A stretch of DNA of 64,000 bases, from positions 32,326-96,325 of the forward strand of contig FR882195.1 in NCBI GenBank assembly GCA_000434935.1, given 5' to 3'. This document shows, one piece after another, positions 1,880 to 11,933 of this stretch. A program made the position numbers and the translations under genes. The notes under the pieces were generated by a model. It saw only the letters and a program-made list of their open reading frames with translations, did no database searches and had not been told where the DNA came from. This DNA is from Bacteroides sp. CAG:709. Its GTDB lineage: Bacteria; Bacteroidota; Bacteroidia; Bacteroidales; UBA932. The first letter of the stretch is position 1; each line of letters starts with the position of its first letter.

Positions 1880-3958
1880 TTGGGGGAAGCTTCCATTGGT
1901 GATGCGAATATTTTGCAAAATTATTTTCGTATATTGGACCGAAATAAGGTTGATCAGAAATATTATACGGAAAAAATGAAAACCTACAACTTGATTACAG
2001 CGGAACAAATTGCGAGGCTGGAAGCACAATCGTGCAGGTGCGAGGACTGGAACAATGTCCTTGTAGACCCAGAATTTGACACGGAGTACGTGAGAAATGT
2101 GACGTTCTCCGGACAAATCAAACTGGGCTCATTCAAAAAAATCTTCACATTGGCAGGGGGAATCCGGAAGCACAGCGGAATTTTTCACGCTACCCTCCAC
2201 AATGTCGTGGTAGGAGACGACTGCATGATCGAACATGTCCGGAACTACATTGCAAATTACGTAATCGGCAGCGGCTCATATCTGGAGAATGTGACGGACC
2301 TGATTACCTATGGCGAGACATCGTTCGGCAATGGAATCAAGGTCAATGTCCTTAATGAAACGGGCGGACGTGAAGTCATCATCCATGACAATCTGTCCTC
2401 CCATGAAGCCTATATATCAGCACTTTATCGACACAAACCGGCATTGACTGAAGCCCTCGACAAGATGGTCGGAAAATATGTGCAGAGCGTCACAGCTTCC
2501 TTCGGCGTCATCGGCGAGAATGTCGAAATCCTCGACGCGATGCATATTGTCAATGTCAATATCGGCCCTTATGCCAGGATCAAGGGCGTTTCACGTTTAC
2601 GTAACGGATCGGTCATTTCCTGCAAGGAAGACCCTGTGGAGATAGGCATGAACGTGATAGCCGATGATTTCATCGTGGAAAGCGGAAGCAAGATTACTGA
2701 CGGCGTGATGATTTCCAAATGCTTTGTCGGACAAGCCTGTGCCCTGGGGCATGGCTACAGCGCTTCGGAATCATTGTTCTTCAGCAACTGCCAAGGAGAA
2801 AACGGTGAGGCATGCTCGCTTTTCGCCGGGCCATATACGGTTACCCATCACAAGTCGACACTGCTGATTGCCGGAATGTTTTCATTCATGAATGCCGGTT
2901 CGGGGTCCAACCAGAGCAATCACATGTATAAATTGGGACCGATTCATCAGGGTATTCTCGAAAGGGGAGCGAAGACTACATCAGATTCATATATATTGTG
3001 GCCCGCTAAAATCGGCGCGTTTTCCCTCGTAATGGGACGTCATGTCAACAATCTGGACACGACTGATTTGCCGTTTTCGTATCTGATTGAGCAGCAAGGC
3101 TCTACCTATATCGTCCCTGGCGTGAACCTGAAGTCTGTCGGGACCATACGTGATGTCAAGAAATGGCCGGAAAGGGACAAACGGAAAGACCCGCACCGCC
3201 TGGACCACATAAATTTCAACCATCTGAGTCCGTTCACCGTGCAGAAGATGTTTGCCGGCATTGATATCTTGGAACGCCTCAAGGAGGCTTCAGGTCTGAG
3301 GGCTGACAATTATTCTTACAAGAAAGCGACAATCCGTAATGCGGCACTGTTCAAAGGCATCAAATATTACCAGACAGCTATCGTAAAATTCTTGGGCAAC
3401 TCGCTGATCTCCAGGATTCAGGATGCTGATATCAGTACGGACGAGGGGCTTCGTCTCGCATTGCGCAAGGATACTGCCGTGGGCTCCGGACAATGGGTGG
3501 ACATCTCGGGTCTCATCGCCCCGGCTTCAGAAATAGAAAGTATCTGTGATGACGTGATTTCCGGGAAAATAGCGGATGTCAATGTCCTTTCAGACAGATT
3601 CCTGGACATTTTCGCCCATTACTACAATTACGAATGGACATGGGCCCATGATGCAATCGAGCGTTATTGGAAGATTGATCTTGCCCGGATTACACGAAAT
3701 GAAGCCGCCGATATAGTGAAACAGTGGAAGAATGCAGTCGTTTCTCTGGACAAGTTGATCTACGAAGACGCCCGTAAGGAATTCGACTTGACGACCATGA
3801 CAAGTTTCGGTGCTGACGGCGACAAGACGCGCCGGGATGAAGATTTCAATGCCGTCCGCGGCGGAGGTTTCGATGACAATCCTTTCGTTCAGGAAGTCAT
3901 TGACCACATCCGCCGCAAGTCGGCACTCGGGGACGGCATCATTGCCCGTCTCAAGTAA
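1880..3958 (+). CDS. DUF4954-family protein (Bacteroidetes, ~690 aa, beta-helix-like)
   Basis: Long ORF with an N-terminal 'NLITAEQIARLEAQ..CEDWNNV' region recalled as typical of the DUF4954 family. An alternative in-frame ATG lies at 1976 (MKTYNLI..). Confidence 0.5.
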   Translation: MGEASIGDANILQNYFRILDRNKVDQKYYTEKMKTYNLITAEQIARLEAQSCRCEDWNNVLVDPEFDTEYVRNVTFSGQIKLGSFKKIFTLAGGIRKHSGIFHATLHNVVVGDDCMIEHVRNYIANYVIGSGSYLENVTDLITYGETSFGNGIKVNVLNETGGREVIIHDNLSSHEAYISALYRHKPALTEALDKMVGKYVQSVTASFGVIGENVEILDAMHIVNVNIGPYARIKGVSRLRNGSVISCKEDPVEIGMNVIADDFIVESGSKITDGVMISKCFVGQACALGHGYSASESLFFSNCQGENGEACSLFAGPYTVTHHKSTLLIAGMFSFMNAGSGSNQSNHMYKLGPIHQGILERGAKTTSDSYILWPAKIGAFSLVMGRHVNNLDTTDLPFSYLIEQQGSTYIVPGVNLKSVGTIRDVKKWPERDKRKDPHRLDHINFNHLSPFTVQKMFAGIDILERLKEASGLRADNYSYKKATIRNAALFKGIKYYQTAIVKFLGNSLISRIQDADISTDEGLRLALRKDTAVGSGQWVDISGLIAPASEIESICDDVISGKIADVNVLSDRFLDIFAHYYNYEWTWAHDAIERYWKIDLARITRNEAADIVKQWKNAVVSLDKLIYEDARKEFDLTTMTSFGADGDKTRRDEDFNAVRGGGFDDNPFVQEVIDHIRRKSALGDGIIARLK

Positions 3959-4075
3959 ATTTTCCGTATCCATGTGTCCAGTCGAATATCAGAATACATG
4001 GAGATTACTCCGACCATGGCATGATGATTGTCTTATCGAGTCTGCGTACAACATTGATTCTTATCCGAAAACCAA

Positions 4076-4759
4076 TTGATTATGAACAGAAATAAATTGA
4101 CGGCAGCAACGGTCGCATGCATTCTTATGCTGACCTTCAGTATCTCTGCAATCGCGAGAATTAAAAAACCTGTCATAGAACGCGGCATGACCAAACAGCA
4201 AGTGACAGCTTTGCTTGGTACCCCGTTGACATCCAGTTTCGATGAATTCGGCGACATCTGGATGTATGAAGAATGGCGCGGACCGTTTGTGGGTGGTTCA
4301 AACGTAAGGATTTATGTAATGTTCGATATGACTGGTAAAGTCGTCAGATGTGACGAACGGACAATTGAGTCCAACCGGCAGGAAGAAATCAATTCTCAGG
4401 TTTACTCCAATGGCGTTCCAAGAATAAATCAGCAGGTATATCCGCATGGACTGCACGGGCTGAACGATAGAGACTTTTCCACTTTATATAAAAAAGTGTC
4501 CGATGCCAGCTTCGATAAAGACAAGAAGGATTTGATAGAAGTGGCCAGCCTTGGCTGCTATTACTCATGCAATCAATGCGCGAAGATATTAAGCATCTTT
4601 TCGTTTGACGATGATAAACTAGCCGTGTTCAAGTTAATGGCTTCTCATATCATTGACTTGCAGAATATACATATAATTTATCAGCAGTTTACATTCGATG
4701 ATGCCAAAAAGATGGTCTCGGATATTCTGCAGTCAGAGTTTGCACATTACTCGCACTGA
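4076..4759 (+). CDS. Secreted/lipoprotein with C-terminal DUF4476-like domain
   Basis: Signal peptide (MIMNRNKLTAATVACILMLTFSISA). The C-terminal 'EVASLGCYYSCNQCAKILSIFSFDDDKLAVFKL' resembles DUF4476. Confidence 0.45.
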   Translation: MIMNRNKLTAATVACILMLTFSISAIARIKKPVIERGMTKQQVTALLGTPLTSSFDEFGDIWMYEEWRGPFVGGSNVRIYVMFDMTGKVVRCDERTIESNRQEEINSQVYSNGVPRINQQVYPHGLHGLNDRDFSTLYKKVSDASFDKDKKDLIEVASLGCYYSCNQCAKILSIFSFDDDKLAVFKLMASHIIDLQNIHIIYQQFTFDDAKKMVSDILQSEFAHYSH

Positions 4760-4878: not shown

Positions 4879-7017
4879 CTAATTCACGAACACCATTTCT
4901 TTCAGCAGATGGTCTGCGCCGGCCAGCTTGTCTATGGTGAACAGGACATAGCGGATGTCAAGCGAAATGTTGCGGCAATAGTCAGGGTCGAATTCGATGT
5001 CGCTCATCGTGCCTTCCCATACGCGGTCGAAATTCAGACCGATCAGGTTGCCGTCCTTGTTTATCACCGGACTTCCGGAATTGCCTCCCGAGGTGTGGTT
5101 GGTGGCGATGAAGCATACCGGAACTGTCTTCTTTCCATTGTCCCCGGTTATCGCCCATTGACCGTAATCCTTGGCCGCATAGATGTCGCGCAGCCTCTGT
5201 GGAATGTCATAGTCGAAAATCTCAGGATTGTCCTTTTCCATTATTCCTTCGAGCGTCGACTGCGACTTGTAATATGTCCCGTCGGCAGGGGAGTAGCCGC
5301 TGATGCTTCCGTAAGCTACTCTCAATGTGAGATTTGCATCCGGGAAGAATGCTTTCTTCGGCTCGAACTCCATCTGACCTCTCATATAGTCCCTGTAAAG
5401 CAGAGTGATTTCACGGTTCAGGCGTTTCTCGTAAGGGTATACGTCGCTTGCATACCATTTCCTGAATTCATTGGCGAACCTTACCGCCGGATCAGCATAC
5501 ATTGTTGCCGTATCTGATGCCTGCAATTTCGCAACCTTGTCCGCATCCGTGAAGAGGGATTCTCCGAACAATGCATCTGCCCAGTTGCTTACGCTTCCGT
5601 ATTTCGCCAGCTCTTCTTTCATATACTCCGGATGGAACTCTTCGGGAACATCTTTAGCGAATGCGCTCATGGTCGCCACGAAAGACTCCTTGTCGATAGG
5701 AAGGTAATAATCCTTGTAGAATGCCTCCGACAATGCTGCCGCCCCTTCATTGTCGCCGCCGGCAAGCTTCTTCGCTACCGAACCCGCGAAACTGCAAAGC
5801 TCCACGGACGCGGCCGTCTCGCTGTAATACTCCCTGGCGAAAGTATAAGGTTCCAATGCTCCATACAATGAATCCAGGCGTGGCAGTATGGTGCTGTATT
5901 CCGTCCCCTCGGCCCACTTGGCAAATCTCTTTTCGTATTCCTGTTTTGCGGCTACGGTGCCCAGGCGGTTGATTCCCTTCATCTCGCCCTGCCACTTTTT
6001 CCATGCGTTGGCCACGCCGGCATTCTTGGAAGAGTACTGGATTCTGACCTTCTGGCTCTCGGACATGTATTTTTTCTGAGTGTCGAGCCTCATTGTCCTC
6101 AGTGCTATCTTCGCAGGGTCGGAAATCTCCGATACATATCTCACGCCCTCTGACATGATATATTCCTGGGTCCTTCCCGGAAATCCGTACACGAATGTGA
6201 AATCGCCTTCCTGAACGCCTCCGAGTGAAATCTTGAAGAATCTCTTGGGCGTGTATGGAACATTGTCCTCGGAATATTCAGCAGGGTTGTTGTCCTTGTC
6301 TGCATAGATGCGGAAAATGGAGAAGTCGCCCGTATGGCGCGGCCACATCCAGTTGTCCGTGTCGCCGCCGAACTTTCCGATGGATGAAGGCGGAGCACCT
6401 ACCAAGCGGACATCGCCGTATTCGCGGTAGAGGAACAGGAAATACTGGTTTCCGTAATACAATGACTCGACAGTAGCCCTAAGTCCCTTTCCTTCGGCTG
6501 TTACCTCTTTTATGAGCTGCTTGGAATTGACATTCACGATGGAGTCCCTTTGCGCTTCGGTCAATTCCGGGGTATATCCTTCGAGAATCACTGAAGTGAC
6601 GTCTTCCATCCTTTCCAGGAAACTCACGCTGAGCCCCTTGTTCGGCAGTTCCTCCTCTCTGCTCATTGCCCAGAATCCGTCCCGCAGGTAGTCGTGTTCG
6701 ACGCTGCTGTGCTTCTGGATCTGGCCGTATCCGCAGTGGTGGTTGGTAAGAAGCAGTCCTTCCGCTGAAATGACTTCACCCGTGCATCCGCGCCCGAAAA
6801 GCACGACCGCATCTTTCAATGATGCCTGATTCACGCTGTAAATGTCTTCTGCCGAGAGCCTGAAGCCCTTGTTCTGCATGTCCCCGATCCTCTCTGAAAT
6901 CAGCGACGGAAGCCACATGCCCTCATCCGCATAAGCCGCCGTTTCCGCAATGATTCCCATCGACAATGTCAATGTCAATGCTCCGATCGTGTTCCTGAAA
7001 ATTCCTTTCTGTGTCAT
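4879..7017 (-). CDS. S46 family serine dipeptidyl-peptidase (DPP7/DPP11-like)
   Basis: Signal peptide then 'DEGMWLP' and the C-terminal 'TGGNSGSPV' serine-protease motif characteristic of family S46. Start chosen at the MTQKGIF ATG (7017) rather than the upstream in-frame ATG at 7116. Confidence 0.75.
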   Translation of the reverse strand: MTQKGIFRNTIGALTLTLSMGIIAETAAYADEGMWLPSLISERIGDMQNKGFRLSAEDIYSVNQASLKDAVVLFGRGCTGEVISAEGLLLTNHHCGYGQIQKHSSVEHDYLRDGFWAMSREEELPNKGLSVSFLERMEDVTSVILEGYTPELTEAQRDSIVNVNSKQLIKEVTAEGKGLRATVESLYYGNQYFLFLYREYGDVRLVGAPPSSIGKFGGDTDNWMWPRHTGDFSIFRIYADKDNNPAEYSEDNVPYTPKRFFKISLGGVQEGDFTFVYGFPGRTQEYIMSEGVRYVSEISDPAKIALRTMRLDTQKKYMSESQKVRIQYSSKNAGVANAWKKWQGEMKGINRLGTVAAKQEYEKRFAKWAEGTEYSTILPRLDSLYGALEPYTFAREYYSETAASVELCSFAGSVAKKLAGGDNEGAAALSEAFYKDYYLPIDKESFVATMSAFAKDVPEEFHPEYMKEELAKYGSVSNWADALFGESLFTDADKVAKLQASDTATMYADPAVRFANEFRKWYASDVYPYEKRLNREITLLYRDYMRGQMEFEPKKAFFPDANLTLRVAYGSISGYSPADGTYYKSQSTLEGIMEKDNPEIFDYDIPQRLRDIYAAKDYGQWAITGDNGKKTVPVCFIATNHTSGGNSGSPVINKDGNLIGLNFDRVWEGTMSDIEFDPDYCRNISLDIRYVLFTIDKLAGADHLLKEMVFVN

Positions 7018-7201
7018 TCGGTTATTGTTTGATGTATGTTTTGTTTGATTGTTATGTTCTGCATGACGATATGAAGAACATAACACAAAGATAATCAAAT
7101 GCCGCCGATAATTCACAACCGTTGCGCGTTATTTGCCGCAAGAGTGACTGTATGATTTCCGCCACGCCTCTTTTCAATGCGTACCAGGGCAACAATAAGT
7201 A

Positions 7202-7320
7202 GGCGTGGCGCATAAGTCCTTACGTCATAGCGGATTAGCTACTTTCAGGGTTGCGGTTTTGCAAACTCTGAAAATGCCGAAATATCTAATAGCTAGCTAT
7301 TTACACGCCACGGCGCATAA
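7202..7320. repeat. Copy 1 of a repeated structured element: GTGGCGCATAA ... CGGATTAGC-TTTCAGGGTTGCGGTT ... AACTCTGAAAATGCC hairpin ... GGCGCATAA
   Basis: About 45 nt (7231-7278) are near-identical in arrangement to 46475-46522. The central imperfect palindrome is TTTCAGGGTTGC / GCAAACTCTGAAA. It is flanked by GGCGCATAA direct repeats at 7207-7215 and 7312-7320, plus an inverted CCGCCACGCCT at 7159-7169. Confidence 0.5.
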
Positions 7321-7420
7321 TTTCTACTTGTGCCAAACAGTTCACTTGCAAGTGAGGCATTTATTCTGATATGAATATCCCCTTGCAAGAAACCTGATTT
7401 TCGCTATCTTTGCAAAGATT

Positions 7421-7456
7421 TGAACATTTTGTAAGACAGATTTGAACATTTTGTAA
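7421..7456 (+). repeat. Left copy of a 36-38 bp direct repeat (TTTGAACATTTTGTAAGACAGATTTGAACATTTTGTAA) abutting the ATG of the ATPase gene
   Basis: Matches 8651-8688 with 1 mismatch and a 2-nt length difference (36 vs 38 bp). It is itself a tandem duplication of a TTTGAACATTTTRTAA core. Confidence 0.8.
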
Positions 7457-8655
7457 TGGAAAATCAGACATTTTACGTTAGGAAATACTACAATGATGTA
7501 TTAGGTAGAGTCAATGAGAAAAGGAATAAGATACAAGTGATTGTGGGCCCTCGTCAAGTTGGAAAGACCACCTTGATGGATCAAGTTCTGGAGAAGGTCA
7601 CGATTCCTTATACTCTAACGAAGGCAGATGGGGTTAATCCAAAAGATTCCAGTTGGATTCATCGTACATGGGAGTCTGTGCGTGGCCTGATGAGAATTAA
7701 GCATGAGCAAACTCACTTGCTTGTCATTGATGAGATTCAAAAAATTGATCAATGGAGTGAAGGTATCAAGACGGAATGGGACTGGGATACTCATAATGAT
7801 GTAAACATTAAATTGATTCTGCTCGGATCTTCCAGACTGATGTTACAGTCCGGACTTAAAGAGAGTCTTGCCGGAAGATTTGAATTGATTCGAATGGGAC
7901 ATTGGTCTTTCAAAGAAATGTCGGATGCGTTCGGATTATCATTGGAGGAATATATATATTTCGGAGGATATCCAGGCGCAGCTGGATTCTTGTCGGATGA
8001 GAGTCGTTGGAAACGCTATATTAAGGATAGCATAGCTGCTCCGGCAATCGAAAACGATATTCTTCAAACCAGCAATATTTACAAACCTGCTTTGATGAAG
8101 CGGTTGTTTGAACTTGGATGCAAATATTCGTCTGAGGAATTGTCTCTTACGAAAGTTGCAGGACAACTTCAAGATGAAGGGAATATCACTACTCTTGCAT
8201 CTTATCTTGATTTGTTGGACCAATGCCAATTAATCTCCGGGCTTCAAAAGTATGCTAATGATGATGCCCGCAAATATAATTCAAGCCCTAAATTCCAGGT
8301 TTATAACAATGCATTGCTGTCGGCCTTTCAACGAAAATCGTATGCGGCAGTAAGAGTTGATGCAAAATTATGGGGAAGATGGGTTGAAAGTGCTGTTGGT
8401 GCTCATCTTCTATCACAGGCTGAGGACGAAGATTTGAGGGTGTTTTATTGGCGTGAACGTGATGATGAAGTCGATTATATCGTGCAGTCTGATGATTCTT
8501 GCATTGCGATTGAAGTTAAAAGTGGGAGAAGAGGTATGAATAACGGATTGCCTAGGTTTACCGAAAAATTCAAACCTGCACATAGTTATATCATTGGCAC
8601 TGGTGGAATCCCTCTCGATGTTTTTCTTGCGAGTTCAATAATAGAGTTGTTTTGA
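7456..8655 (+). CDS. AAA-family ATPase with C-terminal PD-(D/E)xK-like DUF4143 domain
   Basis: Walker A 'VIVGPRQVGKTT' and Walker B 'LLVIDEIQ'. The C-terminal 'EVDYIVQSDDSCIAIEVKSG' fits a D..(E)xK nuclease-fold motif. This is the classic AAA_14 + DUF4143 architecture. Confidence 0.75.
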   Translation: MENQTFYVRKYYNDVLGRVNEKRNKIQVIVGPRQVGKTTLMDQVLEKVTIPYTLTKADGVNPKDSSWIHRTWESVRGLMRIKHEQTHLLVIDEIQKIDQWSEGIKTEWDWDTHNDVNIKLILLGSSRLMLQSGLKESLAGRFELIRMGHWSFKEMSDAFGLSLEEYIYFGGYPGAAGFLSDESRWKRYIKDSIAAPAIENDILQTSNIYKPALMKRLFELGCKYSSEELSLTKVAGQLQDEGNITTLASYLDLLDQCQLISGLQKYANDDARKYNSSPKFQVYNNALLSAFQRKSYAAVRVDAKLWGRWVESAVGAHLLSQAEDEDLRVFYWRERDDEVDYIVQSDDSCIAIEVKSGRRGMNNGLPRFTEKFKPAHSYIIGTGGIPLDVFLASSIIELF

Positions 8656-8688
8656 ACATTTTATAAGACAGATTTGAACATTTTGTAA
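8651..8688 (+). repeat. Right copy of the 36-38 bp direct repeat, overlapping the ATPase stop codon and immediately preceding the next gene
   Basis: TTTGAACATTTTATAAGACAGATTTGAACATTTTGTAA, compared with the left copy at 7421-7456. Confidence 0.8.
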
Positions 8689-8695
8689 AACGGAA

Positions 8696-8902
8696 ATGAA
8701 GATTGAAGAGGCGATTTTGTATGTTCTGGCTGAACGCAACGGCGGGTTGAGGACTGAACAGATTGCGGAGATCATCAACCGCAGGAGGCTGCATGTCAGG
8801 AAAGACGGGCAGCCGGTTACGTCGGCGCAGGTCTATGCCGTAGTGATGCGTTTCCCGGAAACATTTGTGAAGGCTGAAGGACGCATAATGCTGCTCATCT
8901 GA
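8696..8902 (+). CDS. Small putative winged-helix DNA-binding protein (68 aa)
   Basis: The ORF starts 8 nt after the right repeat. Its sequence 'LYVLAERNGGLRTEQIAEIINRRRLHV' looks like a wHTH. It is followed by a bidirectional hairpin terminator. Confidence 0.35.
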   Translation: MKIEEAILYVLAERNGGLRTEQIAEIINRRRLHVRKDGQPVTSAQVYAVVMRFPETFVKAEGRIMLLI

Positions 8903-8926
8903 AGTCTTGTTCCGGAAACGACATAA

Positions 8927-8960
8927 AGAAAGTCGACCGCATGGCGCGATCGACTTTCTT
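8927..8960. terminator. Bidirectional hairpin terminator between convergent genes
   Basis: Inverted repeat AAGAAAGTCGA-(13 nt)-TCGACTTTCTT. Confidence 0.5.
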
Positions 8961-8967
8961 GAGTTTA

Positions 8968-9147
8968 TCAGTCTTCCGGATATGGAGCGAAATCGGATTT
9001 CGATGCGCCGCATACCGGGCATTTCCACGAATTCGGGATATCTTTGAAAGGTGTACCAGGTTTTATCCCGCCATCGGGATCACCCTCAGCCGGATCATAA
9101 ATCCATCCGCATCTGAGGCATTCATACTTCATCAGATCTTTTGGCAT
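8968..9147 (-). CDS. Rubredoxin (59 aa; not in the ORF track because it is under 60 aa)
   Basis: Manual minus-strand translation gives [59 protein letters not shown]. This has the two CxxC...CPxCG rubredoxin iron-binding knuckles. The start may instead be the internal ATG at 9132 (MKYECL.., 54 aa). Confidence 0.8.
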
Positions 9148-9253
9148 AATATAATAGATTATTAGTTAATACGCTCGAAGTTAATCAATTATATAATAAT
9201 ATCAAAATTTAGAAGTATTTGAAACCTGCAAAAAAATGCTATCTTCGCGGTAA

Positions 9254-9733
9254 ATGGAAAAAATTATGGAAGAACCGATATTGAATGCCCATAACAAGGC
9301 TGAATACGAGCCGGCGCATACCGCAGAACATATCCTTAACCGCACGATGGTCAACATGTTCGGATGCCCGCGTTCGCGCAATGCCCATGTCGAGCGGAAG
9401 AAAAGCAAATGCGACTATATCCTTGACACCTGCCCTACGGACGAGCAGGTCGCTGCAATAGAGACGAAGGTCAATGAAATTATCAATGCAGCATTGCCCG
9501 TGACGATACATTTCGTTTCGAAAGAAGATGCCGCCGGGATTGTGGATCTGAGCAAGTTGCCTGATGATGCCTCTGATACTTTACGCATTGTCAGCATTGG
9601 AGACTATGACGATTGCGCGTGCATCGGCGCTCATGTATCGGACACCTCGGAAGTCGGCGAATTCAAGATAATCAGTCATGACTTCAACGATGGAATCTGG
9701 CGGGTCCGCTGGAAAGTCATCTCTTGCAGATAA
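9254..9733 (+). CDS. alaX: AlaX-S-like tRNA editing protein (alanyl-tRNA synthetase editing-domain homologue; Ser-tRNA(Ala) deacylase)
   Basis: 159 aa with the zinc-binding motifs 'HTAEH' and 'CIGAH' typical of the AlaRS/ThrRS second additional domain. Confidence 0.55.
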   Translation: MEKIMEEPILNAHNKAEYEPAHTAEHILNRTMVNMFGCPRSRNAHVERKKSKCDYILDTCPTDEQVAAIETKVNEIINAALPVTIHFVSKEDAAGIVDLSKLPDDASDTLRIVSIGDYDDCACIGAHVSDTSEVGEFKIISHDFNDGIWRVRWKVISCR

Positions 9734-9799
9734 ATGCTTTGTTCTTTAATTGATATTTTATACTTTTGTGTAAATATTTAAAATAGCATTTTAATAATT

Positions 9800-11080
9800 G
9801 TGGTTAATAAAGCATTACTTAAACAGATTCTTCTGGACAATCGTCGTGAAATCGAAAGTTACAATATAGTCCACAGAGACATTGAAACTGAGGGCTATGG
9901 CTGTTATGTGTTTGTCGGTGTGAGAAGAGCCGGCAAATCATTTGTTCTCTTTGAACGGATTCAACAGTTGTTGCGTGAAGGGCATAATTGGGATGAAATG
10001 CTTTATTTAAGTTTCGAGGATGAACGGTTGATCGGCTTTGATTATGAAGACTTCAATTCGATCATTGAATGCCATATTGAAATGACCGGAAAGGATAATC
10101 CGATGCTGTTCCTTGATGAGATACACAATATTGACGGGTGGGAAAAGTTTGCGAGGCGTATGGCCGACAGCAAACGGACCGTTTGGATTACCGGTTCAAA
10201 TGCCAAGATGCTTTCAAAAGAGATAATGACAACTCTTGGAGGCCGTTATATACCAATAGAGGTTTATCCATATAGTTTCACAGAATATCTCCGTTCGCGA
10301 AATATTCCTTATGATGACAATACTTTGATGAGTACTGCAGGAAAGTCCATCTTTTTGCGGGAATACGCAGAGTACATGAACTGGGGAGGATTGCCGGAGA
10401 GTGTTCTGTTGACGGTAAAAAGGGGATACATGAGTTCAGTATATCAGAAGATATATCTTGGAGACATTTGTGCGCGTAACAAAATCAGCAATCCGAACCT
10501 CCTGCGTCTTATGGTCAAGAAGATGGCTGAAAGTGTGAAACAACCATTGTCTTATTCGAGACTCTGTAAAGTTTTGTCCGGAATAGGCGGCAAAATAACC
10601 ATTCCAACAACCAGCAATTATATCGGGCATTGTGAAGATGCGTGGCTTTTGTTGCGGCTACGTAACATAAATGCCGCATTTGCGGAACGCGAAACTAACT
10701 GCAAATATTATTTCATTGATAATGGATTACTTAGCCTTCTTCTTGTGGATCCGACAACTACTTTATTGGAAAACATGGTTGCCGTTGCTCTTTTCCGCAA
10801 ATATGGAAATGACTGCGATAATGAGCGCGTCTTTTTCTATAACCATAATGTTGAGGTTGACTTCTATATCCCAGAAGAAGAATTGGCAATACAGGTTTCT
10901 TATTCCATCGACAAATCGGATGTGACCTTGAACCGTGAAGTTGACGCCTTGCAGAAACTGCCGAAAGCATTACCGTGCAAACGCAGATTGATAATAACAT
11001 ATGATGACAGGAGAACCTTGAATGACGACTATGGTACAATCGAAGTGATGCCTTGCTGGGACTGGCTGATCAACTTTTAG
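9800..11080 (+). CDS. Second AAA-family ATPase with DUF4143 / PD-(D/E)xK-like C-terminal domain (paralog of 7456..8655)
   Basis: Walker A 'GVRRAGKS' and Walker B 'LFLDEIH'. The C-terminal motif is 'VEVDFYIPEEELAIQVSYS'. GTG start at 9800; the frame opens at 9782 with no ATG available. Confidence 0.7.
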   Translation: MVNKALLKQILLDNRREIESYNIVHRDIETEGYGCYVFVGVRRAGKSFVLFERIQQLLREGHNWDEMLYLSFEDERLIGFDYEDFNSIIECHIEMTGKDNPMLFLDEIHNIDGWEKFARRMADSKRTVWITGSNAKMLSKEIMTTLGGRYIPIEVYPYSFTEYLRSRNIPYDDNTLMSTAGKSIFLREYAEYMNWGGLPESVLLTVKRGYMSSVYQKIYLGDICARNKISNPNLLRLMVKKMAESVKQPLSYSRLCKVLSGIGGKITIPTTSNYIGHCEDAWLLLRLRNINAAFAERETNCKYYFIDNGLLSLLLVDPTTTLLENMVAVALFRKYGNDCDNERVFFYNHNVEVDFYIPEEELAIQVSYSIDKSDVTLNREVDALQKLPKALPCKRRLIITYDDRRTLNDDYGTIEVMPCWDWLINF

Positions 11081-11933
11081 ATGCGCTTTCTGACGATGGG
11101 TTCTTCTGCAATCTCCAGGCGCGGGGCGTAAGGCCGGTGTGCAGGCGGAAATAGCGGGTGAAGAATGAGGCATCGCAGAAATTGTAGTCCCAGGCAAGCT
11201 GCTTGAGGGACTTGCCGGAGCCGGAAAGCTCCTGCTTGAGCTTGAGGATGACATAGTGGTCGATCAGAGTCTTGGCGCTGTTGTCCGTAATCTCTTTCGT
11301 GATGATATTCAGGTACTTGGACGATATGTTCAACTGGCCGGCATACCAGTTTACATCACGGAAACGCCTATAATTCAACTCTATCAGTTTCATGAACAAA
11401 TTGAACAAATCTCGCTTTCGCTTGGAAGACGAGGATGGCGGAACCATGTCCGGAAATCTGGAAATATAATCATGGAAACCTATGAAAAAGGCCTTCAGCT
11501 GGCATAGGACGAGCCTGTCCAGACACTTGCATGTGCTCTGGCGAAAATATAAGCCGAGTAATGTGAACATCGACCTGACAATATCGGAAACCACCTGGGA
11601 ATCGCTGCGGCACCTGTCCTCACGCAACTTGTCATAGATGCTGTGCTCGATATCCAGACTCGCCTCACGCAAAATGTTCGGACTATAAACCAGCATGTCG
11701 ACAATGAAATCGGAAGACTGTCTGCTGACCGAAATCACATCTCCAGGGAATATGGTGATGACACCGCCGTCCGGAAGATCCCATGCATGATAATTGACAT
11801 TGATGACGGCGCTGCCGCGACGGCACAATATGATCATTCCGTTCTCGGAAAGCATATCACCATTGGCGGTGTTGATATCCGACACACCCCCGATAAGTTC
11901 CGCTGTCATTTTTCCACTGATGATGCTGTCCAT
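11070..11933 (-). CDS. AraC-family transcriptional regulator (divergent from the efflux operon)
   Basis: C-terminal AraC HTH 'FFTRYFRLHTGLTPRAWRL'. Its 3' end overlaps the convergent ATPase gene by 11 nt. Confidence 0.7.
   Translation of the reverse strand: MDSIISGKMTAELIGGVSDINTANGDMLSENGMIILCRRGSAVINVNYHAWDLPDGGVITIFPGDVISVSRQSSDFIVDMLVYSPNILREASLDIEHSIYDKLREDRCRSDSQVVSDIVRSMFTLLGLYFRQSTCKCLDRLVLCQLKAFFIGFHDYISRFPDMVPPSSSSKRKRDLFNLFMKLIELNYRRFRDVNWYAGQLNISSKYLNIITKEITDNSAKTLIDHYVILKLKQELSGSGKSLKQLAWDYNFCDASFFTRYFRLHTGLTPRAWRLQKNPSSESASKS

Follow-up and report, generated by a model that had tools for sequence, protein, structure and literature searches.

The iterons of plasmids such as pSC101, P1, F and RK2 are tandem direct repeats of 17-22 base pairs (bp), spaced by about 22 bp and located beside the gene of the Rep protein that binds them. 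AAA+ initiators also lie beside their own repeated sites, the archaeal Orc1/Cdc6 proteins next to ORB elements and DnaA next to the DnaA boxes of the dnaA promoter. The C-protein operators of restriction-modification systems are pairs of short palindromic C-boxes with a dedicated small regulator. Here, we describe a tandem array of 22-bp units present on both sides of a gene for an ATPase of the candidate defence family PDC-S01 in Bacteroides sp. CAG:709. The locus lies in a stretch of 64,000 nucleotides (nt), hereafter referred to as the window (contig FR882195.1, positions 32,326 to 96,325 of the forward strand), and positions given below are those of the window unless another locus is named.

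PDC-S01 ATPases are among the most frequent candidate defence genes of rumen and gut Bacteroidales, and PDC-S01 has been reported to be the commonest single candidate defence locus of rumen genomes (PMC13356809). These proteins contain DUF4143, which is listed among the PD-(D/E)xK domains of unknown function (PMC3424549). In the literature that we found, the family is treated as a catalogued candidate only, and a demonstrated function of PDC-S01 was not found there. A limited search of Rfam and of the literature on DUF4143, PDC-S01, COG1373/AAA_14 ATPases and the motif sequence returned no description of the array. The initial annotation of the locus had taken the gene for an inserted cassette delimited by repeats. 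Our analysis indicates instead that both repeats are very probably copies of one cis element, an array found throughout the ATPase subfamily, rather than the scar of an insertion.

Results

The direct repeats are two arrays of a 22-bp unit

The ATPase gene is bracketed by direct repeats of 38 nt (7419-7456 and 8651-8688) that a repeat finder aligned without gaps with 37 identities in 38 positions (97%), the sole mismatch being G7431 versus A8663. The near-identical repeats reported by the initial annotation are therefore real, but their left copy had been placed 2 nt too late (7421 instead of 7419) and the 2-nt indel thought to separate the copies was an artefact. The same annotation described each copy as a tandem duplication, and this is borne out: both are built from two tandem units with a period of 22 bp, of the type AGATTTGAACATTTTGTAAnnn, the same period being returned by Tandem Repeats Finder for the right array. 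The geometry was also as stated, since A7456, the A of the ATPase ATG, is the last base of the left copy, the TGA stop codon of the ATPase (8653-8655) falls within the first right-hand unit, and the following open reading frame (ORF) begins at 8696. The coordinates of all features are collected in Table 1.

The left copy is the ATPase's own array, located between a -7 box and the ATG. The box, TATCTTTG, is the only match to TAnnTTTG on the + strand within 7100-8700, and homologous loci have kept a box at this position; its assignment as a promoter is predicted. At the other end of the gene, the native C-terminus of the ATPase family is LF followed by a stop codon (TTGTTTTGA or its TAG counterpart). 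This end overlaps the TTTGA of the unit at the point where the ATPase ORF meets the right array.

Within the 64-kb window, the 16-mer core of the unit was found four times with at most 3 mismatches, in every case in these two arrays, for a chance expectation of 0.74; four occurrences were reached in none of 100 shuffles. A scan of the whole window for self-similarity at period 22 detected only the two arrays. Strains of the same species carry both repeats, and their left and right arrays bear different point changes, a pattern of independent divergence that the initial annotation had itself named as incompatible with its insertion model. The number of units also varies among strains and species. 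From these comparisons, we infer that the bracket consists of two adjacent arrays and involves no target duplication.

Table 1. Features of the ATPase locus in window coordinates.
Feature	Positions	Strand	Basis or remark
Segment present in the window, absent from L010 and from the sister species L043 (1,564 bp)	7106..8669	+	BLAST breakpoints 7105/7106 and 8669/8670
Fragment like the 5' end or leader of an Abi-family gene (abiF-motif-like)	7155..7190	+	Plasmid match, weak Rfam hit
Remnant of a degenerate terminal CRISPR repeat	7300..7335	+	L147 homology begins inside L147's last CRISPR repeat (compare L147 1864-2165)
Predicted -7 promoter box, Bacteroidetes-type, TATCTTTG	7405..7412	+	10 nt (TTTG to TTTG) ahead of first unit
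Left array, two 22-bp units, AGATTTGAACATTTTGTAAGAC and AGATTTGAACATTTTGTAATGG	7416..7459	+	Last unit abuts the ATPase ATG
ATPase, 399 residues, AAA+, wHTH and PD-(D/E)xK domains (AAA_14 and DUF4143)	7456..8655	+	Pfam, PADLOC
Right array, two units, TGTTTTGAACATTTTATAAGAC and AGATTTGAACATTTTGTAAAAC	8648..8691	+	Unit 1 overlaps the ATPase stop codon
Conserved small wHTH-like protein, 68 residues	8696..8902	+	Sub-threshold HARE-HTH match, 19.2 bits (cut-off 25.9)
Hairpin terminator shared with the convergent rubredoxin gene, operon end	8926..8960	.	15-nt arms, 93% complementary

The array accompanies one subfamily of PDC-S01 ATPases

An exact search for the 19-mer AGATTTGAACATTTTGTAA, with one genome per species, returned 45 genome loci, nearly all from gut and rumen Bacteroidales and many with 2-7 tandem units spaced by 22 nt. 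In 28 of the 45, an ATPase of the same subfamily (395-399 residues) starts a few tens of bases downstream on the same strand; 27 of these are full length and one runs off the retrieved sequence. The core does lie upstream of other DUF4143 genes, as the initial annotation had proposed to check. At most of the other loci, what follows the array is an ATPase ORF with a truncation or an internal deletion, or nothing at all, and three single-unit matches outside Bacteroidales look like chance.

To avoid the bias of a motif-based search, 80 loci were picked by protein similarity alone (50-99% identity). An array was scored when a period-22 self-similar stretch was present at most 320 nt upstream, and 971 windows from the same loci served as controls. 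Arrays were found upstream of the gene in 74 of the 80 loci versus 20 of the 971 control windows; other periods (19-21 and 23-25) were detected by the same test in 0-4 of the 80 loci. The family consensus, nAGAWTTGARnAWWTT followed by 6-7 unconserved bases, contains a shared core, WTTGARnA, and the unit variants differ by clade (TTTGAACATTTTGTA, TTGAGTAAATTTGCA, TTGAGAATTTT, ATTGAACATTTTT and others). Of 201 distinct units, 99% have an A at position 12 and all have a purine at position 10, and the linker positions 17-22 hold less than 0.25 bit. Successive cores are spaced by exactly 22 nt in 164 of 182 cases.

A second AAA_14/DUF4143 ATPase, of 426 residues and assigned to another PDC-S01 model (PDLC04787), is encoded 1.1 kb downstream (9800-11080). 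It is preceded by a TACTTTTG box (9761-9768) and has no 22-bp array, which indicates that the array is specific to the subfamily described by model PDLC04791, to which the first ATPase belongs.

Arrays on both sides of the ATPase were seen in only three lineages among approximately 125 loci, namely the window species together with L147, L045 and L089. In L045, array and ATPase are followed by an orphan second array ending at a terminator, and in L089 the second array lies upstream of the next gene. Roughly one third of the Bacteroidales array loci are ghost sites, in which promoter and array are intact and the ATPase ORF is deleted (L013, L028, L034, L046, L053, L033, L029, L024, L043 and the second array of L045). 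The first 3 and last ~14 codons are joined in frame in L013, L028, L034 and L046; at the other ghost sites, only a 5' stub is left or the array runs directly into a terminator, the latter being the case for the orphan array of L043.

In L016 (~3006-3125, oriented coordinates), a complete promoter-array-ATPase unit is preceded by an extra array with the first 8 ATPase codons, a further case of a cassette that was stacked or replaced. In L153, direct repeats of 123 bp (3749-3871 and 5246-5368, 89% identical) flank a cassette whose ATPase is 85% identical to that of the window. A third copy of the 123-bp repeat, located 3.7 kb upstream, precedes one unit and a truncated ATPase ORF of which the first ~50 nt are left (L153 1-270).

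Viral contigs gave two matches, one being a single unit in an unrelated high-GC context, which is likely due to chance, and the other two units with no ATPase downstream. Since neither has the array-ATPase arrangement, the possibility that the element is phage-borne was rejected. A distant BLAST search of a plasmid collection revealed no carrier of the cassette, the only matches being a 36-bp match to the Abi leader, described below, and a Coxiella ATPase fragment.

The position of the array relative to the promoter varies

Two architectures were distinguished. Architecture A comprises 29 loci, the window among them; a TAnnTTTG box precedes the first unit by 11-14 nt, which would put the array in the 5' leader. 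In architecture B (24 loci), the -7 box comes after the last unit, at exactly 18 nt in 16 of these loci, which places the array upstream of the promoter. The leader RNA of the window folds no better than shuffled sequences (z = -0.3), and a search of 6900-9400 against Rfam at E ≤ 1 returned only two sub-threshold hits, neither of them on the arrays. Fixed spacing, free linkers, a variable position with respect to the promoter and the lack of an Rfam match or of folding are together best accommodated by a phased, protein-binding DNA element. We therefore infer that the arrays act at the DNA level, as a predicted protein-binding element.

The ATPase has intact catalytic motifs and a predicted winged helix

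Profile matches above threshold place the ATPase in the AAA_14-DUF4143 and PDC-S01 families. The scores were 85.9 bits for AAA_14 (E = 3e-24, cut-off 27) and 92.6 bits for DUF4143 (E = 3e-26, cut-off 28.1) in Pfam, and 577 bits for the PADLOC model PDLC04791 of PDC-S01 (E = 2.8e-174, profile positions 2-392 of 395). Searches of NCBIfam and of PDB sequences with the protein gave no matches. The catalytic motifs are intact, comprising Walker A (GPRQVGKT, G36-K37-T), Walker B (VIDE, D92-E93) and the D340...E353-x-K355 residues of the PD-(D/E)xK domain, all located at invariant columns in alignments of 10 and 44 sequences that include the window protein.

An AlphaFold model (predicted local distance difference test, pLDDT, 84; predicted template modelling score, pTM, 0.83) predicts an AAA+ core and lid, then a winged helix, then the PD-(D/E)xK domain. 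The modelled winged helix-turn-helix (wHTH) would comprise helices 211-221, 229-238 and 247-256 and a beta hairpin with strands 261-265 and 279-281. The segment QLQDAGNVTTLxxYL of the ATPase is almost invariant across clades, as is the TTGA core of the units. Comparison of the model with the PDB by Foldseek gave only generic AAA+ matches (TM ~0.3, 12-14% identity), which were not used for family membership; subunits of the origin recognition complex (ORC) and DnaA were among them (7jpo_D, 8s0e_D, 1l8q), and NSF, Rix7, Lon, RFC and Avs4 scored equally.

Alleles with and without the ATPase exist within the species

Ten contigs of the same species were retrieved via the 68-residue protein encoded downstream of the ATPase. 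Nine of them have the ATPase followed by the small ORF. The tenth (L010) runs from the S46 peptidase gene directly to the small ORF without an ATPase, in flanks that are 97% identical to the window. The gene has therefore indeed been gained or lost here, and the empty site anticipated by the initial annotation, with a single unit fused to the 8696 ORF, does exist. The indel itself is not delimited by the repeats. In L010, 44 unrelated bp (hereafter P44) replace the entire segment 7106-8669, the left edge of which lies 313 bp upstream of the left repeat; P44 is followed by a single unit, AGATTTGAACATTTTGTAAGAC, and then GGAAATG. Homology restarts at 8670, so that the unit kept in the ATPase-less allele corresponds to unit 2 of the right array. 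P44 itself holds TAATTTTG, a Bacteroidetes -7-type box, and carries another promoter of the ATPase type.

The same 44-bp stretch was found at the syntenic locus of a sister species, 'Bacteroides sp. CAG:545' (L043), in which the peptidase gene is 83% identical and homology to the window ends at 7105. Its P44 is ~88% identical to that of L010 (7 differences in 58 nt), consistent with the 83% identity of the flank, and is followed by two units and then directly by a terminator, with neither ATPase nor small ORF. The presence of P44 in both L010 and the sister species indicates that the P44 arrangement is old at this site. On the rubredoxin side, 8920-9208 is 95% identical to L043 2250-2538, compared to 83% on the peptidase side, a difference that could arise if rubredoxin were strongly constrained or if the right flank had been exchanged recently.

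Copies of the ATPase gene that include promoter and left array, 88-92% identical in DNA, are located in two contexts unrelated to that of the window, directly after a CRISPR array in L147 (cas1-cas2-array, five repeats) and between YfhO and DHFR/ThyA in L157; an ATPase protein with 85% identity is found in a fourth context (L152/153). The left array was inherited together with the gene in L147, L157 and L152. There is no complete unit after the ATPase stop codon in L157 or L152/153, and L157 shares only TTTAGACAT with the window where the ATPase ORF meets the right array.

The segment that distinguishes the alleles contains, upstream of the ATPase promoter, the two fragments listed in Table 1. 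The CRISPR repeat of L147 was found nowhere else in the window. The other fragment, 7155-7190, matches the start of an 'Abi family protein' coding sequence in the B. fragilis plasmids pBFO17_1 and NZ_CP036547.1 at 35 of 36 bases (97%), and the abiF RNA of Rfam scores 23.5 bits at 7161-7190, below the gathering score of 37. Because it combines a CRISPR-repeat remnant with an Abi-leader fragment, the 1,564-bp segment has the appearance of DNA imported from a defence island. Neither an integrase or transposase nor an inverted repeat lies within ~6 kb of the ATPase gene, and no integrase was present among the genes called within ~6 kb in 11 same-species contigs. The further proposal of a site-specific recombination cassette is not supported by these surroundings.

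The small wHTH gene is not a general partner of the ATPase

The small protein has 1,044 homologues with 84-97% identity. In other species (L057-L065), its gene (84-90% identical) is located directly after the YbjQ_1 gene and has no array, its start overlapping the YbjQ stop codon in L057-L064 and lying a few bases after it in L065. Adjacency to the ATPase was found only in the window species and L147, indicating that the two are not generally partnered. The high conservation of the small protein suggests that it has a housekeeping function independent of the ATPase. The small wHTH protein was also considered as a regulator of the arrays and was ruled out, its adjacency to the ATPase being restricted and its usual YbjQ context lacking an array. 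No -7 box was found between the ATPase and the small ORF in the window, and the two genes are probably co-transcribed, up to the hairpin at 8926-8960, which was also scored as a 16-pair stem followed by a T-rich tail.

In L147, the 3' half of the small wHTH gene is present as a direct duplication of 131 nt (3586-3716 and 4026-4156, 440 nt apart), and the first duplicate has lost its stop codon (95-residue product). This suggests that the module integrated into or beside a resident copy of the gene. Further downstream, beyond the rubredoxin gene (~9150-11100), the window and same-species contigs (L001-L010) differ from each other, the variants including DUF6922 with or without AbiEii, a group II intron reverse transcriptase (L005) and, in place of the 426-residue ATPase, a 401-residue AAA_14 gene on the other strand. 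This stretch is hypervariable and defence-island-like.

Discussion

The interpretation that we favour overall, with moderate confidence, combines three parts: a family-wide array, a local history of cassette replacement and a role of the arrays as operators. With regard to function, the arrays would offer a sequence-specific protein binding sites in phase with the DNA helix, one for every two turns; the likeliest candidate for this protein is the ATPase itself, through its nearly invariant wHTH. The AAA+ protein would then either autoregulate in an iteron-like manner or nucleate at the promoter of its own gene. We put forward tentatively, from domain content and adjacency, that the arrays may be operators bound by the ATPase.

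With regard to the alleles, we lean on balance towards a history in which an older cassette was lost and a new ATPase segment replaced P44. The site would once have held a cassette consisting of P44, an array and an ATPase. Loss of this ORF would have left P44 and its array before the small ORF, as in L010, or before a terminator, as in L043. A second cassette, comprising promoter, array and ORF together with defence-island debris, would then have recombined in and replaced P44, with the right-hand joint of the incoming segment anchored in the resident array or in the small ORF. The right copy is read as a relic since it follows an ATPase-type promoter of its own, P44, in both L010 and L043; it would probably be the array of the older cassette, now the leader of the small wHTH gene.

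Several observations weigh against this combined interpretation. The joint between ATPase, unit and HTH gene also exists in another context, in L147, so that the arrangement of the window could be old and L010 the result of a deletion with promoter replacement; L010 is, moreover, a single metagenome scaffold. Comparison of wHTH residues with unit variants revealed no clean co-variation beyond shared ancestry, and L083 and L087 have similar wHTH segments and different units. The units resemble the -7 box, each TTGAGTAAATTTGCA unit containing a perfect TAnnTTTG, and their ligand could be RNA polymerase or sigma instead of the ATPase. Finally, well-kept orphan arrays (L043, L045) are unexpected for sites that need a binder encoded in cis, unless paralogues act in trans or the gene losses are recent.

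The model of the initial annotation, in which the ATPase was inserted into the leader of the wHTH gene with duplication of that leader, or formed a site-specific cassette ended by the 38-bp repeats, predicts an empty allele with one unit before the 8696 ORF, and this allele exists. The right breakpoint, 8669/8670, also falls exactly on a unit boundary, and the copy number of units varies between strains and species. However, the alleles differ by 1,564 bp versus 44 bp, with a left edge 313 bp away from the left repeat, and the left array, far from having been created by insertion, belongs to the conserved promoter region of the gene in more than 100 other loci and moves with it. Together with the rarity of two-sided arrays (three lineages), the lack of a recombinase, transposase or terminal inverted repeat within ~6 kb and the independent divergence of the two repeats between strains, these differences make the insertion model very unlikely. 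The polarity of the change is a separate issue, since array-ATPase-array-HTH might be ancestral and the ATPase-less allele derived from it by recombination between the arrays and promoter replacement. In its favour, the unit of L010 has the exact sequence of left unit 1 and a single difference from right unit 2, deletion occurs readily between direct repeats of 38 bp, loci of the family have frequently lost the ORF and kept the array, and L147 has the same ATPase-unit-HTH joint at a different locus. A simple deletion between the arrays would, however, have retained 7106-7415, where L010 has P44, a sequence orthologous to that of the sister species (~88% identity), and the foreign debris upstream of the ATPase fits an incoming segment. 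We regard this opposite polarity as unlikely.

The preferred role of the arrays as DNA sites for a protein has to be weighed against three other proposals. If the units were tandem duplications of the core promoter, their ligand would be RNA polymerase with sigma-A, and they would provide stacked promoters, sigma-dependent pause sites or polymerase traps in the absence of a dedicated regulator. The units do contain TTTG-type motifs, with a perfect TAAATTTG in every unit of one clade, a T as the last linker base makes the unit read TAGATTTG, and in architecture B the actual -7 box replaces the next unit at the fixed distance of 18 nt. Nonetheless, the most conserved positions of the unit (TTGA, R10 and A12) differ from those of the TAnnTTTG consensus, and the spacing of 22 bp is unlike the 19-21 bp reportedly found by Bayley et al. 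in 2000 between the -33 and -7 elements of Bacteroides promoters. The restriction of the element to one ATPase subfamily, the second ATPase of the window being devoid of it, also argues against a core-promoter element, which we consider rather improbable. A function at the RNA level appears more improbable still. The host bacteria are poor in Shine-Dalgarno sequences, and an AU-rich leader motif might recruit the ribosome or S1, or bind an RNA-binding protein or small RNA, to tune translation of the ATPase and of the wHTH protein; this would suit the leader position of the array in the 29 loci of architecture A, where the last unit abuts or contains the start codon, the AU-rich and unstructured nature of the leader, and the fact that both ORFs of the window begin right after a unit. 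In the 24 loci where the array is upstream of the -7 box, however, transcripts from that promoter should not include it, a strict 22-nt period combined with free linker sequence suits the helical phasing of DNA better than the binding of single-stranded RNA, and neither an Rfam match nor a covarying structure was found. Finally, the arrays might be functionless, slippage-prone repeats hitch-hiking with the gene, as their highly variable copy number (1 to 7) and the persistence of orphan arrays without the gene would allow. Their occurrence in 74 of 80 homologues, down to 50% protein identity, with a conserved core and an invariant period amid diverged linkers and flanks, makes this hardly credible.

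A more elaborate version of the operator proposal, which we offer as speculative and doubtful, is that the arrays are loading platforms. The protein would oligomerise on its own array in the manner of Orc1 or DnaA, remain repressed or poised, and be released on infection, and the arrays would in addition serve as homology and microhomology anchors for cassette swapping. If this were true, the anchors would allow promoter-array-ORF cassettes to swap, stack and delete at defence hot spots, and this turnover would explain the bracketed gene of the window, the orphan arrays and the near-identical copies in unrelated contexts.

Independently of the mechanism, a conserved phased DNA element at nearly every gene of one PDC-S01 subfamily provides a handle on control and recognition in this family. 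The array predicts a specific DNA ligand for the wHTH of the ATPase, and WTTGARnA repeated every 22 bp is a signature by which such genes, and the relics left by their decay, are located in metagenomes. The locus also calls for caution in genome scans, as a gene lying between direct repeats can be flanked by two adjacent regulatory arrays and not by insertion scars.

Comparison with known mobile elements and repeat systems sets the locus apart from most of them. As in integron cassettes and transposon insertions, a single gene bracketed by repeats is present or absent between strains. Unlike those of integron cassettes, the repeats are direct and coincide with no inverted repeat or attC palindrome, and no integrase is present, so that the gene cannot be classified as such a cassette. 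In contrast to the target-site duplication of a transposon, the repeat is far longer and pre-exists at other loci; the left boundary of the indel (7106) is off the repeat, and there are neither terminal inverted repeats nor a transposase. The arrays are likewise not CRISPR arrays, since their units follow one another directly and only 6-7 variable bases separate the cores; the genuine CRISPR array that adjoins the homologous ATPase module in L147 is built from a different repeat.

Resemblance is closer to systems in which repeated sites adjoin the gene of a DNA-binding protein. With the C-protein systems, the locus shares repeated sites at the promoter of a potentially toxic candidate defence gene and an HTH protein in the same unit; it differs by having 2-7 direct repeats instead of C-boxes, and the effector itself would be the binder. 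Like Orc1/Cdc6, with its winged helix, and DnaA, with its helix-turn-helix, the ATPase has an AAA+ module followed by a DNA-binding domain and an array adjoining its gene, but it carries an additional PD-(D/E)xK nuclease domain and its structural matches are generic. The arrays have direct repeats with a conserved core at a fixed spacing of ~22 bp, as expected of iteron-type repeats, and share with plasmid iterons a variable copy number and units made of a conserved core and a variable remainder. Unlike iterons, the window locus and its same-species copies are chromosomal, with housekeeping neighbours and neither a Rep gene nor an origin, and the proposed binder, predicted only, is an AAA+/wHTH/nuclease protein instead of Rep. 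Lacking a Rep initiator and an origin, the arrays are at most iteron-like. A repeat array is mentioned neither in the PDC-S01 papers that we retrieved nor in any Rfam family. The array is thus apparently undescribed: its kind, a tandem operator or iteron, is known, and its link to an abundant candidate defence family appears to be new.

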